From IMG/VR virus record IMGVR_UViG_3300036832_001373, positions 64,001 through 128,000 of that record: a DNA stretch of 64,000 bases, one strand, 5' to 3'. This document shows positions 30,184 through 55,000 of this stretch, one piece after another. How positions within the stretch are numbered: position 1 is the first letter of the stretch; the number at the start of each line of letters is the position of its first letter. The position numbers were made by a program, and so were the translations under genes. The notes below the pieces were generated by a model. That model saw nothing but the letters and a program-made list of their open reading frames with translations. It was not told where the DNA came from and did no database searches. The DNA is from a virus.

Positions 30184-33100
30184 CTACTTTAATGCATAAG
30201 GAAATAGTGGATATATACCCGAGACAGCCGAGGTTGTATTCATAGTAATTGATCCTTCTCCACCAGCTGTACCATTCGTAACTGCAGTTAGAGTAGCTCC
30301 AAATTGAGCTAGAGGATAGGAAAACCCAGGAGCCGTAGGAGCAGGAGTTGTTGAGTTGTAATTCCAATTAATACCGTACCAAATATCACCAACCGAGTAA
30401 TACGTCGCTAGATCCGTTCCATTACCATCTCCTCTATGAACGTGTGATATGGTAGCACTACCAGAAGTAAATGTACCATACTCAAGTTGAGCAGGAATCC
30501 AAACTCCTGTCTTGATAATTATAGTATAACCAGTTAATGCCGTGTCTGGATTAAGATTTGAAACAAATGTCGAATTCCCAAGAGTATCAACTAGGATATT
30601 ATTTTGCTGCTGAGTAGTTACAGGCACATACCCACCGCCACCACCAACGTTCGCTCCTACTATAGTAACAAGAAAGATGGTTCCAGTATTCTGATGATAT
30701 AACAAATCTCCAGGAGAGAGTTTAAAAGCACTACCGGAAACCATCAAAGATTGATCAAAGTGGAAAGTCATCGTATCAGCATTACCAGGATACGTAACAG
30801 TACCGCCTCCACCTACTGTAGTCATATCTACGAGGTACTCTACTGGTACAGCCATATTCCACAAACGATATTGACTATCTTGATATAGATAACTTGCTTG
30901 ACTCATTTGTCGTCTAGATAGAGAAATCGATCTATTAATGATACTATCATGTATCAAAGTACCCTGAGTACTGGTAGGAGTCTGAAACCAAGTCCCTTTC
31001 AGATTATTAATCTGTAGACTTCTAGTCCCTCCTGGATTAAAACGACAAGGGCCAAGAATCATGCCACCGCAATAGTTCACTGCCTGTTGATGAACTACGT
31101 CCTGAGTCTGGAGATTTCCTAATCCATTGATAGCACTCTGCCAGCTACCTCCATTAATTGTGAGGAAACCATATTTATCATTAAGAGTAGTTATCCGCGA
31201 GTAGCCATTAACTATTACGTTAGTTAAGATCACATCAGCAGAAGCTGACATCATGGAATGTGGGATGCACCCATGCCCGTTGTCCTCATTAAAACCAAAC
31301 GTACAATCGGAGACGTGCACGGCTGATGTAAAACTACCTCCAGAAAAATCACCAAGTCTTACTACGTCTTCGACATAAATATGAGAGATTTTTACAGGGC
31401 CTGCAGTCCCTAGATACAAATCAGCAATGTTATATCCCTGTCCTCCAGCGTTATTTTCTATAGGACCATATATACCTCCTCCCTCAGCACCAAACTTGTT
31501 GTTACATATAAAAGTATGGCAGTATTGCCACATATTATTTCGAATTTCTACAGACCTTGATTGTGTGTTGGCTATGCAAATGGCATATGGCGCACATGTT
31601 ACAGTACAATCACGTATATGAGTAAAATCTGCGTTTCCATCTCCGTTAGGTTGATTTACAATATCAACTCCAAAACCATCAACCTCAGTTTCTTCTATAT
31701 GAACTTGACTAGAAGACCATGTAGGAATGGTACCCCCTCCCCAATTACCAGGAGTCGTCGCATTACCTCCAGGAGTGGTTGAAGGAGTATAAGTAAACTG
31801 CGTACCATTTGAAAGAACATTGCAGTTATATATGCCATTATAACTGCTAGGAACAGCATTAATTATTTGCAGCCATGTTGGTACAGCTGAAAGACCATGT
31901 GGATTCACAGCCGTAGCAGTCGCTGTAGTCCCAGATATAGTAATAGAAGACAAAGCAGCAGTAGCCCACCCATTTGGGTGATTATACCCTCCAGATATAA
32001 CCCAAGCTGGGAGAGTTCTTGGTGGGTAGTTATTTGCTTGGGGAAATGCGCTGTATGCATCAACAGCAATCCCTGCATACGGAGCATATCTAGATATACC
32101 ACCTCCATTGGTACCAATTGGGATCAGCTCTGGAGCTAACCAGTCATTTGCATTACCAGAATGGTTAAATCCCTGAGCCTGAGAACCTACAGCAAAGTTT
32201 GCATTTACTCCTACAATAGTAATACCTTTAATACCACTATGTCGTGAGCCTTGGATATTAACAGCAGGTCGATCCGTCTTAGTAGGATAAAAAACTGGAG
32301 CATTACCAATTGTAGCAGAAAAATTAGGTCTATAAGTACCAATCAATGTTATATCATACGCGTTGTTACCCCAACCAACGTGTAAAGTATCATCAATTCT
32401 ATATTTTCCATAAGGAACCTTAACTACTGAACAACCATTCTGCATAGCAAAATCTAATGCTTGTTGGAACATAGGTGCATTATCTGTTCCTTGAGTTATA
32501 CTATTATATACCGTAAACGAAACAGTTCCTGATGCAGGCATATTTCCATCAAGAGTTATGCTATTAGCAGTAGGCTTACTTTGAACAATCCTAGGGACTT
32601 GTGGAGCTAATGCTGAACCTTTTGACGCATAATTAACAACCGCAAACTGCTGATTTACGTATATGCCAGATGCATCAGCTGCTCCATTCCTCTGAGTTAT
32701 TCCTGTTATCGTTGGTGAGTTAGCAGTAGATGTCCCAGTCCACTGTCCTGCACTAAATACCTGAGTGGAATAACCATCTCCAATGGTTCCAAACTCACCA
32801 GCATTGACAGGGTTCCTTGAATAGACTGGAGTCCATATTTTACTATCTACCGTAACTTCACCATATAGTCCAGTTGCAGAAGTTGACTTTTTATAAAGTA
32901 ATGGAGTAGCTTCAAGGCTAGCAGCTGGAGGATAAGTTCCTGTACGTGCTCTTACATACACATAGTTATATGTGGATGCAATAGTGACACCAGGAGTAGT
33001 AAAAGCTGAGTAAGTATCAAAATTTAACGTGTCAACATTACCTATGCCAGCAGGTCCAGTAGCTCCTGGAGTTCCTGAAGCTCCTGGAACCCCAGAAGGA

Positions 33101-33771
33101 CCAGTAGGTCCAGGAATTCCTGGAGTCCCGACTCCAGAGGGACCAGTAGGTCCAGGAGGCCCTGTAGCTCCTGCACTAGCTGCAGTTCCTGGTATTCCTG
33201 AGGGGCCAGCAGATCCAGTAGCTCCTTGAACTCCAGTGGATCCGACTGGACCTGGAGATCCTGGAGTTCCAGATGTTCCAGGAGCCCCAGTAGCTCCAGC
33301 TGCTCCGGTAGGACCTGCTATACCAGTAGCTCCAGGAGGACCAGTAGCTCCAGACGCTCCTGCTGCTGATACAGTTCCAGGTATTCCTGAGGGACCAGAT
33401 GCACCAGTAGCACCTGGTGCTCCCTGAATTCCTATAGGACCCATTACCCCCTGAGAACCTTGAGGTCCAGTAGCTCCAGTGACCCCCTCAACCCCAGCTG
33501 GACCAGTAGCTCCTTGAGCTACAGCAGTTCCAGGTATTCCCTGAGGACCAGTAGGTCCTGTAGCTCCAGTATAATCTGGAGGTTTCTGAACGCTAGGGCC
33601 AGTAGCTCCGTCAGGATCTCCTGGATCTGCTACCCAAACACCTGTAGGTAAAGTACTAACAGTAGTTGGTATAGTAGTATAAGCATTGGCGGCAATCCAA
33701 TAGATTTGCCCATCGTCACCATTAATCGCCACTTGATAGTTATTACTATTGTATAACGTAGTGAAGTTCAT
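30184..33771 (-). CDS. Collagen-stalked tailspike/depolymerase-like protein
   Basis: Shared N-terminal domain, about 180 aa of G-X-Y repeats, then a pectate-lyase-3-like beta-helix start (FGTIGDG...TDNAPMFQQALD...VPYGKYRI). Confidence 0.8.
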   Translation of the reverse strand: MNFTTLYNSNNYQVAINGDDGQIYWIAANAYTTIPTTVSTLPTGVWVADPGDPDGATGPSVQKPPDYTGATGPTGPQGIPGTAVAQGATGPAGVEGVTGATGPQGSQGVMGPIGIQGAPGATGASGPSGIPGTVSAAGASGATGPPGATGIAGPTGAAGATGAPGTSGTPGSPGPVGSTGVQGATGSAGPSGIPGTAASAGATGPPGPTGPSGVGTPGIPGPTGPSGVPGASGTPGATGPAGIGNVDTLNFDTYSAFTTPGVTIASTYNYVYVRARTGTYPPAASLEATPLLYKKSTSATGLYGEVTVDSKIWTPVYSRNPVNAGEFGTIGDGYSTQVFSAGQWTGTSTANSPTITGITQRNGAADASGIYVNQQFAVVNYASKGSALAPQVPRIVQSKPTANSITLDGNMPASGTVSFTVYNSITQGTDNAPMFQQALDFAMQNGCSVVKVPYGKYRIDDTLHVGWGNNAYDITLIGTYRPNFSATIGNAPVFYPTKTDRPAVNIQGSRHSGIKGITIVGVNANFAVGSQAQGFNHSGNANDWLAPELIPIGTNGGGISRYAPYAGIAVDAYSAFPQANNYPPRTLPAWVISGGYNHPNGWATAALSSITISGTTATATAVNPHGLSAVPTWLQIINAVPSSYNGIYNCNVLSNGTQFTYTPSTTPGGNATTPGNWGGGTIPTWSSSQVHIEETEVDGFGVDIVNQPNGDGNADFTHIRDCTVTCAPYAICIANTQSRSVEIRNNMWQYCHTFICNNKFGAEGGGIYGPIENNAGGQGYNIADLYLGTAGPVKISHIYVEDVVRLGDFSGGSFTSAVHVSDCTFGFNEDNGHGCIPHSMMSASADVILTNVIVNGYSRITTLNDKYGFLTINGGSWQSAINGLGNLQTQDVVHQQAVNYCGGMILGPCRFNPGGTRSLQINNLKGTWFQTPTSTQGTLIHDSIINRSISLSRRQMSQASYLYQDSQYRLWNMAVPVEYLVDMTTVGGGGTVTYPGNADTMTFHFDQSLMVSGSAFKLSPGDLLYHQNTGTIFLVTIVGANVGGGGGYVPVTTQQQNNILVDTLGNSTFVSNLNPDTALTGYTIIIKTGVWIPAQLEYGTFTSGSATISHVHRGDGNGTDLATYYSVGDIWYGINWNYNSTTPAPTAPGFSYPLAQFGATLTAVTNGTAGGEGSITMNTTSAVSGIYPLFPYALK

Positions 33772-33790
33772 ATCTTATTCCTCTTAACTT

Positions 33791-54217: not shown

Positions 54218-54300
54218 AAGAAGTGGAGCTTTCATTTGCCTGGGTAAGCTCCACCTCCCTACACTACCTAAGTCGCAAGGAGAACACCTAGGTAGTGCAA
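54218..54300 (-). ncRNA. Double-hairpin structured RNA element, copy D (divergent)
   Basis: TTGCACTACCTA-loop-TAGGTAGTG followed by GGGAGGTGGAGCTT-loop-AAGCTCCACTTCTT. Confidence 0.5.
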
Positions 54301-54343
54301 CTATCAACAAAGTATTATATTAAGTTACTATGTACGATCTCTA

Positions 54344-55000
54344 TTATCCCATTACTACCCATCCAATTCCATCCCTATAACCAGCAAAGACTTGGTTTGT
54401 TCCTCCGCCAGCTGTAATAACTTGTCCTTGATTTTTAGTATTTGAGTCTGAAACTGAGGCCATCATTCCAAAAACAGGTGAAGCAGGTAACTGTGCAAAT
54501 GTCATTGGAAGATTATTAATTATACCTACAACACGTATATTAGCTCCAACATTCAAATAACCACCAATACCAACACCTCCAGCTACTACAAGATCACCTG
54601 TAGTGGGTGAAGTTGAAACTGTTCCAACTCCACAATGAACAGTCGCACTATCGAAAGTTAAACTAGGATCACCAGCAAAATTACCTCCATAATTAAACTG
54701 AATAGACCCTCCAGGTGCTCCTGGAGGATTAAATGGTCCAGTAGGTCCAACAGGTCCTAAAGGTCCAGTAGGTCCAGTAGATCCTTGAGGTCCAGTTGGT
54801 CCTCCTGCAGGACCAGTAGCTCCTGGAGGTCCAGATGGTCCAGTAGCTCCAACTGGTCCTTCAACGCCACCAGGTTGAAATATAGCTGCATTCATATCAC
54901 GAAGAAGTGTCTTAAGTTTAAAAACGTCTGTACCACCTAAAATATTAGGTTGTAGACTACCAGTAATATCTGCATCTATATCAGCTTGAGTGATAGCCAC
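54344..55000 (-). CDS. Short collagen-like (capsid?) fibre protein
   Basis: GPT/GAT repeats, [24 protein letters not shown] and the terminal LP..G...VSD...GGG...W module. Confidence 0.75.

Follow-up and report, generated by a model that had tools for sequence, protein, structure and literature searches.

The window analysed here is a 64,000-nucleotide stretch of viral DNA, bases 64001-128000 of a 147.5-kb IMG/VR phage contig (IMGVR_UViG_3300036832_001373) that is ~70% complete. It contains a myovirus virion module, located on the minus strand by Pfam and PHROG assignments and by comparison with cultured relatives. Within this module we found genes for a GT4 glycosyltransferase (GT) and an S-adenosylmethionine (SAM) methyltransferase (MTase), together with five proteins carrying collagen-like Gly-X-Y repeats in which Thr is the commonest Y residue. 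We studied how the two enzymes relate to the collagen-like proteins, in the window and across related loci. The genes concerned are listed below with expectation values (E) for domain matches, sizes in amino acids (aa) and collagen tracts counted as G-X-Y triplets within runs of at least three.

50294-51421, minus strand: GT4 glycosyltransferase (PF00534, E 1.3e-18; phrog_3408, E 2e-76)
51424-51921, minus strand: GIY-YIG-like free-standing homing endonuclease (PHROG endonuclease matches, E 5e-5)
51937-52545, minus strand: class I SAM methyltransferase (PF08241, Methyltransf_11, 22.9 bits against a cut-off of 21.2; phrog_3603, E 1e-43)
52654-53580, minus strand: Pro-rich repeat protein (HPI-PG-PP / PPIYYPP units, from reading the sequence)
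54344-55000, minus strand: short collagen-like protein just downstream of the capsid gene (18 triplets; PF01391, E 5e-4)
41518-42744, minus strand: collagen-like fibre protein (76 triplets, 26 with Thr at Y)
38001-39299, minus strand: collagen-like fibre protein (85 triplets, 41 with Thr at Y)
36985-37986, minus strand: collagen-like fibre protein (48 triplets, 21 with Thr at Y)
30184-33771, minus strand: collagen stalk fused to a large C-terminal domain (61 triplets; 1195 aa)

The first-pass annotation of this DNA had called the glycosyltransferase, the methyltransferase, at least five proteins with G-X-T collagen tracts and a Pro-rich protein alongside them, and all four calls held. The GT lies in the minus-strand virion module and is matched by both Pfam and PHROG, scoring 67.5 bits with PF00534 (Glycos_transf_1) against a cut-off of 26.4. 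The MTase is identified by Pfam, PHROG, an invariant motif I and a class I model; the collagen tracts are those counted above; and the Pro-rich gene is a real open reading frame, with no Pfam or PHROG match, whose membership of the cassette is uncertain. The ATG chosen as the GT start agrees with the start used across the family, while an alternative upstream TTG would place it at 51430.

Both enzymes look intact. The AlphaFold2 model of the GT (mean predicted local distance difference test, pLDDT, 92.8) has the two Rossmann domains of a GT-B fold, with Foldseek template-modelling (TM) scores of 0.65-0.72 to Tll1591, BGluT, BshA, MshA and PimA, the nearest being Tll1591 and BGluT. Its donor-binding features comprise E269-x7-E277, R204 and K209, with E277, R204 and K209 invariant in 29 sequences, and no hydrophobic or membrane segment was found in the protein. 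The predicted fold is uninformative on the acceptor, as Foldseek gave generic superfamily matches. An 87%-identical GT is present on a 7.8-kb metagenomic contig. The Pfam match of the MTase is marginal; its motif I (LDIGGGP) and D79 do not vary among 28 homologues, and its AlphaFold2 model (pLDDT 93.3) has a class I fold, matching class I MTases in Foldseek at TM 0.5-0.6. These matches are mixed and all weak, including EvdMO1, RebM and MtmC (sugar), NodS, UbiG, and peptide and protein N-terminal MTases.

Across the five collagen-like proteins we counted 288 triplets, in which the commonest Y residue was Thr (109) and the commonest X residues were Pro (114) and Ala (78). Uninterrupted Gly-X-Y runs reach 20 triplets, and many PHROG collagen and tail-fibre families match. 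Lys is scarce: the four smaller proteins have 2-4 residues each, and the 1195-aa protein, whose large C-terminal domain is read by eye as a spike, has 17. An N-terminal domain is common to the proteins at 38001-39299, 36985 and 30184. The collagen gene closest to the GT is the short one at 54344-55000, with a 66%-identical homologue in the metagenomic relative L230.

We then compared GT neighbourhoods across phages. A profile of 29 GT homologues gave at least 599 matches in IMG/VR, of which we read the best 80 loci (46-53% identity) plus two from cyanophages. In 68 of these 82 loci we found a G-X-Y protein whose Y positions are dominated by Thr and whose X positions are filled by Pro or Ala, and in most of the remaining 14 the GT lay at a contig edge. 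The Thr-dominant collagen was the gene immediately upstream of the GT in 33/77 loci and the second gene upstream in 9/70, and occupied 0-5% of positions downstream. Where at least 1.5 kb of upstream sequence was available, a collagen gene lay within 5 kb upstream in 58/67 loci, and many collagen-GT pairs were 10 nt apart on the same strand. Such collagens made up only 72 of the 1653 genes across the GT loci.

The GT-collagen association extended across genomic contexts. Grouping 162 loci by common non-cassette gene families gave 51 distinct contexts, of which 40 contained the GT4; in 23 of these 40 it stood within four genes of a Gly-X-Thr collagen. Such co-occurrence with G-X-T collagens across phage genomes, a check put forward in the first-pass annotation, lends the proposed link strong support from comparison. 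The window proteome overlaps with the 82 loci recovered by way of the GT in nothing but the GT, the MTase and the collagen repeats. With repeats masked, the window collagens matched none of the GT-adjacent collagens and no globular domain was common to them, indicating that the conserved partner is the repeat rather than a globular domain. In the GT tree, members next to a collagen were scattered across the family instead of grouping in a single clade; the window GT fell in a supported clade of six, two of them from collagen-plus-MTase loci. Among 50,697 phage records, full-length family members occurred only in the T4-like cyanophages ACG-2014f and S-CAM7 (GT 38% identical), with the order collagen, one further gene, MTase, GT, 2-oxoglutarate (2OG)-Fe(II) oxygenase and tail fibre.

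The MTase provided a second route to the same association. Its family has at least 850 metagenomic relatives, and 57 of 80 IMG/VR loci found through the MTase carried a full-length GT4 family member, within three genes of the MTase in 53/80 and usually in the order MTase to GT. Among these MTase-selected loci a Gly-X-Thr collagen was present in 38/57 with the GT against 2/23 without it (Fisher p = 3e-6, a value weakened by locus truncation and relatedness). True fusions of the window MTase family to the GT occur in L206 and L233. Six metagenomic GT4 homologues carry a second, different MTase domain at their N-terminus. Since two unrelated MTase domains are fused to the GT4, methylation has been joined to this GT at least twice. 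We considered MTase-GT proteins of ~565 aa (P0015, P0021 and others) as fusions of the window MTase and rejected them, their MTase domains showing no detectable BLASTP similarity to it.

Further tailoring enzymes occupy the same slot in other phages. In six loci a GT25 enzyme lies between the collagen and the GT; this 191-aa gene was first taken for an MTase, an assignment that we rejected. In L010 (3417-9997) and L013 the GT4 is directly preceded by seven 2OG-Fe(II) oxygenase paralogues in tandem and followed by a 584-aa Gly-X-Thr collagen; these loci may represent a hydroxylation-plus-glycosylation array. Between the MTase and the GT4 there is a Sulfotransfer_2 enzyme in L165 (754-1395) and, in L167 (2674-3204), L168, L210 and L211, a 176-aa protein with a P-loop-like RSGTS motif and no Pfam name. 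These loci suggest sulfated glycans in some phages.

In the window the MTase and the GT are separated by the gene at 51424-51921, which was not mentioned in the first reading of this DNA. None of the other loci read had a homologue of it at the MTase-GT junction. Unrelated endonucleases stand there in other phages (L163:8200-8598, NUMOD3; L190:3567-4106, NUMOD4+HNH_3; L201:8539-9063, HNH_3), so that the junction looks like a recurrent landing site for free-standing homing endonucleases and 51424-51921 is probably a selfish insertion rather than a working part. A paralogue at 45104-45736 has a weak GIY-YIG match (E 2e-4). The small intervening gene was also considered as a conserved third component of the cassette and rejected, the genes in this position being mutually unrelated (endonucleases, sulfotransferases). 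As a separate observation, a LAGLIDADG-type insert or intein (PF14890, precomputed domains) interrupts some GT4 homologues, namely L231:14284-16440, L232 (718 aa) and protein P0043 (657 aa). Inteins are usually found in replication enzymes, and one in a glycosyltransferase is unusual.

These data point to a function in fibre glycosylation. We regard it as fairly probable, judging from gene content and neighbourhood, that the GT4 O-glycosylates Thr residues of the phage's own collagen fibres and that the MTase tailors the glycan. The GT4 would be a soluble cytoplasmic protein O-glycosyltransferase acting in late infection, transferring a sugar from a nucleoside diphosphate (NDP)-sugar donor to Thr of Gly-X-Thr triplets in the fibre and spike proteins. 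The adjoining MTase would tailor the glycan, most likely by O-methylating the sugar, and the virion would thereby carry collagen stalks that are glycosylated and in part methylated. We infer that the acceptor is the repeat Thr, that the methyl group sits on the sugar rather than on protein, and that the glycan serves to stabilise or shield the triple helix. The helix-stabilising role draws on published peptide work, in which galactosyl-Thr makes (Gly-Pro-Thr)10 triple-helical (PMC11923368). The same source reports that Thr-rich Gly-X-Y triplets are over-represented in viral and bacterial collagens, TGP and TGA triplets in viral ones, and suggests glycosylated Thr as a stand-in for hydroxyproline (PMC11923368).

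A broader proposition can be put forward only tentatively, at somewhat under even chances: that the large, almost phage-specific GT4 clade is a dedicated Thr-O-glycosyltransferase recognising the collagen repeat, that it forms the core of a modular kit (methyl, sulfate, second sugar, hydroxyl) swapped as a unit, and that glycosylation is a general phage route to collagen folding and stability without hydroxyproline.

The link between the GT/MTase pair and the collagens is circumstantial, resting on guilt by association throughout, and several observations weigh against it. In the window no collagen gene adjoins the GT: 2.9 kb lie between it and the closest one upstream, with the MTase, endonuclease, Pro-rich and plus-strand genes intervening, and the main collagen genes are 7.5-20 kb away, unlike the tight pairs seen elsewhere. 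Forty-seven of the best 80 loci belong to one syntenic lineage, with the order capsid (Phage_capsid_3), a small fibre-assembly-like gene, collagen, GT and SU10-type adaptor, so the raw counts overstate independence. A few phage loci with full flanks lack a collagen. The enzymes of solved structure that come closest, at less than 20% identity, use sugars or pterins rather than proteins as substrates. The relative L230, whose capsid protein is 73% identical, has the MTase with no GT in the slot, in a genome of which only 15% is covered. Finally, none of 17 Nocardia loci examined had a Gly-X-Thr collagen within 8 kb of the GT homologue. The proposal of the first-pass annotation that the two enzymes serve the collagen fibres is therefore upheld in part: neighbourhoods across unrelated phages, the MTase-GT fusions and relatives lacking both enzyme and collagens support it, and the 2.9 kb separating GT and collagen in the window does not. 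The relatives in question are Xanthomonas phage phiXF1 and Pseudomonas phage QdP_Psa3, where neither the GT nor real collagen genes were found.

Cellular homologues define the limits of the family. The full-length GT is nearly absent from one-per-species bacterial genomes, with the exception of one Saccharibacteria contig; in the profile scan of bacterial genomes, nearly all matches corresponded to the C-terminal domain of generic GT4 enzymes. In Nocardia, 21 of 151 genomes carry a 53%-identical member, in a single clade and with up to five copies per genome. In seven of the Nocardia loci (L264, L269, L270, L273, L274, L275 and L277) the GT lies directly downstream of a ~640-aa PPE-like, EspG-linked protein with a long Gly/Ser-rich tract, accompanied by an EspG-like chaperone gene. 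The Nocardia GT4 may glycosylate type VII secretion substrates, and its context would at least fit a Gly-x-Ser/Thr type of acceptor. As these loci lack collagens, the GT family is not restricted to collagens. The first-pass annotation had held that a GT acting on DNA or host LPS and occurring in relatives without G-X-T collagens would refute the idea; this applies only outside phages, where these Nocardia homologues have no such collagens nearby.

Three other accounts of the cassette have to be set against the glycosylation of collagen fibres. The GT and MTase might act on another virion protein (capsid, tail, Pro-rich or other Gly/Ser/Thr-rich), with the collagens mere frequent neighbours in hypervariable fibre modules. 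We consider this unlikely, although it fits the position of the window cassette just past the capsid gene, beside the Pro-rich gene and away from the main collagens, and the main podovirus-like lineage likewise has the pair between capsid and SU10-type adaptor genes. Those capsid and adaptor families are not conserved across contexts, where the Gly-X-Thr repeat is the sole common neighbour feature. Mycobacteriophage GTs that glycosylate subunits of the capsid and tail tube (Freeman 2023, as cited in PMC12619734) and the Nocardia homologues downstream of Gly/Ser-rich PPE-like proteins provide precedents for other acceptors, whereas the strong positional bias towards the gene immediately upstream of the GT favours the collagen.

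A role as auxiliary genes that remodel a host envelope glycan (lipopolysaccharide, capsule or S-layer) or make a small glycoside appears improbable to us. It has the database labels on its side (the PHROGs category 'moron, auxiliary metabolic gene and host takeover' and the JGI name 'involved in cell wall biosynthesis'), but these are generic defaults. The nearest structures include sugar and pterin glucosyltransferases and a methylmannose-polysaccharide mannosyltransferase, and the deviant GC content of 0.36 across 50-52 kb suggests recent acquisition; set against this, the full-length family is nearly absent from bacterial genomes bar the Saccharibacteria contig and the Nocardia clade, no membrane segment, flippase or lipid-carrier gene was seen, and tight, oriented coupling to collagens within late structural operons would be unexpected. 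That the GT adds sugar to hypermodified pyrimidines in phage DNA is very improbable. The GT4 is the sole GT1- or GT2-family enzyme found on the ~70% complete contig, which would leave it as the candidate, but the gene lies in the late virion module rather than among nucleotide-metabolism genes and, unlike phage DNA glycosyltransferases, shows no linkage with base-modification or replication genes. Its full-length homologues in the phage records were those of ACG-2014f and S-CAM7, not of SP-15-type phages, and the family-wide partner is a collagen gene.

The glycosylation of collagen fibres proposed here can be compared with several known systems. In Clostridioides difficile, SgtA glycosylates Thr of the BclA3 GPT repeats in the cytoplasm and is encoded next to BclA3 (PMC7157674). 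The resemblance, a dedicated GT beside a Gly-X-Thr collagen gene, holds at the family level (the gene immediately upstream in 33/77 loci), the window distance being 2.9 kb. SgtA is a GT-A, GT2-like enzyme with tetratricopeptide (TPR) repeats, whereas the window GT is a GT-B GT4 enzyme without TPR and is therefore unrelated to it in fold; PF00535 had no match anywhere on the contig. The partners also differ, those of SgtA belonging to the exosporium and those here being phage fibres, with the activity predicted. O-glycosylation of Gly-Pro-Thr repeats is likewise established for BclA of Bacillus anthracis. Methylated sugars, anthrose among them, are part of the BclA glycans (PMC9614988, citing Daubenspeck 2004).

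Phages are known to glycosylate their own virion proteins, as in mycobacteriophages (Freeman et al. 2023, Cell Host Microbe; cited in PMC12801897 and PMC12619734). As in the window, the GTs there are encoded among structural genes; in the accounts citing that work, unlike here, the glycans are on C-terminal tails of capsid and tail-tube subunits, and no collagen repeats or MTase partner are described. To our knowledge, the mycobacteriophage GT families differ from the window GT4.

Mimivirus encodes collagen-like proteins and also L230, an enzyme that hydroxylates Lys and glucosylates hydroxylysine (PMC9614988; not to be confused with the locus L230 above). As in the Mimivirus L230 and GLT25D1 systems, some loci related to ours carry GT25 and 2OG-oxygenase genes beside the GT4. 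The window differs from Mimivirus L230 and GLT25D1-PLOD in that its collagens are almost Lys-free, the predicted acceptor is Thr and the GT is a GT4; no PF13640 oxygenase or GT25 was found on the window contig. In Riftia cuticle collagen, Y-position Thr bears a sugar and takes the place of hydroxyproline in stabilising the helix (PMC11923368, citing Mann 1996). That is an animal system offering no genetic linkage, and its enzyme may be an unrelated one.

The cytoplasmic GT-B system GtfA/GtfB O-glycosylates Ser/Thr in serine-rich-repeat adhesins (Shi et al. 2014, PMC4110296). It shares with the window GT a GT-B enzyme and a Ser/Thr acceptor, here a proposed one, in low-complexity repeats of a fibre-like protein. 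GtfA belongs to CAZy GT4. Unlike the window GT it needs the GtfB co-factor and a DUF1975 insert, and it was absent among the top Foldseek matches listed, with no sequence relation found beyond the superfamily.

No published description of the pairing of a phage GT with a phage collagen, nor of the modification of phage collagen Thr or its enzyme, was found in a search that left most subscription journals outside its scope. O-glycosylation of Gly-Pro-Thr repeats and glycosylation of phage virions are already known; new here is a GT4 with an MTase partner, unrelated to SgtA. A conserved and readily recognised GT4-plus-MTase cassette tied to collagen genes in hundreds of phage contigs makes the idea of Thr glycosylation directly testable, and the cultured cyanophages ACG-2014f and S-CAM7, which carry the cassette, could serve as a test system. 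If the idea is true, a glycan coat on the fibres would have consequences for receptor recognition, for the stability of virions, for grazing and for how phages are recognised by immune systems, and it would be relevant to the design of stable recombinant collagens. The repeated fusions and exchanges (MTase, sulfotransferase, GT25, oxygenases) provide a natural catalogue of candidate collagen-tailoring enzymes.

The cassette and collagen genes occupy an expanded interval of the virion module, whose assigned genes (Pfam and PHROG, with comparison to relatives) are as follows.

61159-62862, minus strand: portal
57739-59145, minus strand: gp21-like protease
56171-57676, minus strand: gp23-like capsid protein
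26443-28668, minus strand: sheath
25841-26389, minus strand: tube

The nearest cultured phages are phiXF1 and QdP_Psa3, with 38% capsid protein identity. The gap between capsid and sheath genes is 27.5 kb in the window, against ~5 kb in phiXF1 and ~10 kb in QdP_Psa3. From the capsid gene downward, the extra DNA contains the 54344 collagen, the Pro-rich gene, the MTase, the homing-endonuclease-like gene and the GT4. Downstream of the GT4 there are several genes of no assigned function and two further endonuclease paralogues, followed by the four large collagen-bearing proteins (41518, 38001, 36985 and 30184) and a spike paralogue (33791). The sole gene of the capsid-sheath interval common to the window, phiXF1 and QdP_Psa3 is 46110-46610 (166 aa), located downstream of the GT in the window. 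The first-pass annotation had placed the two enzymes between capsid and neck genes; the capsid side of that placement stands, while no neck gene is named by PHROGs or Pfam in the window.

Several minor observations concern the surroundings of the cassette. The plus-strand gene 53661-54167 runs opposite to its neighbours, and its homologue L230:10291-10785 runs in the same direction as the structural genes, a sign of local inversion or rearrangement around the cassette. Elsewhere on the same contig (G000), outside the window, there is a plus-strand NAD-dependent sugar epimerase/dehydratase (PF01370, E 3e-14) at 22926-23543 and, 14.9 kb past the window end, a minus-strand PhyH-type dioxygenase (PF05721, E 1e-10) at 142861-143448; either could feed or extend a fibre-modification pathway. 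A locus that lacks the GT encodes a look-alike of the Pro-rich protein (L198:9158-9829) two genes downstream of its MTase homologue, and the resemblance may be one of composition only.

Reading of the fibre proteins by eye gave two further observations. In the GT-adjacent collagens L029:8687-9985 and L009:3308-5809, a globular insert resembling C1q/BclA-type domains lies between two collagen runs, and the L009 protein ends in an apparent T4 gp12-type tail-collar motif; if these domain readings are right, the GT partners are BclA-like fibres and tail fibres. In the window, a short C-terminal module (a hydrophobic stretch, GGG, and W-V near the end) appears at the ends of 54344-55000 and of 39314-39658, a 114-aa protein upstream of the collagen 38001, and in tandem within the spike paralogue (33791-37000 region).

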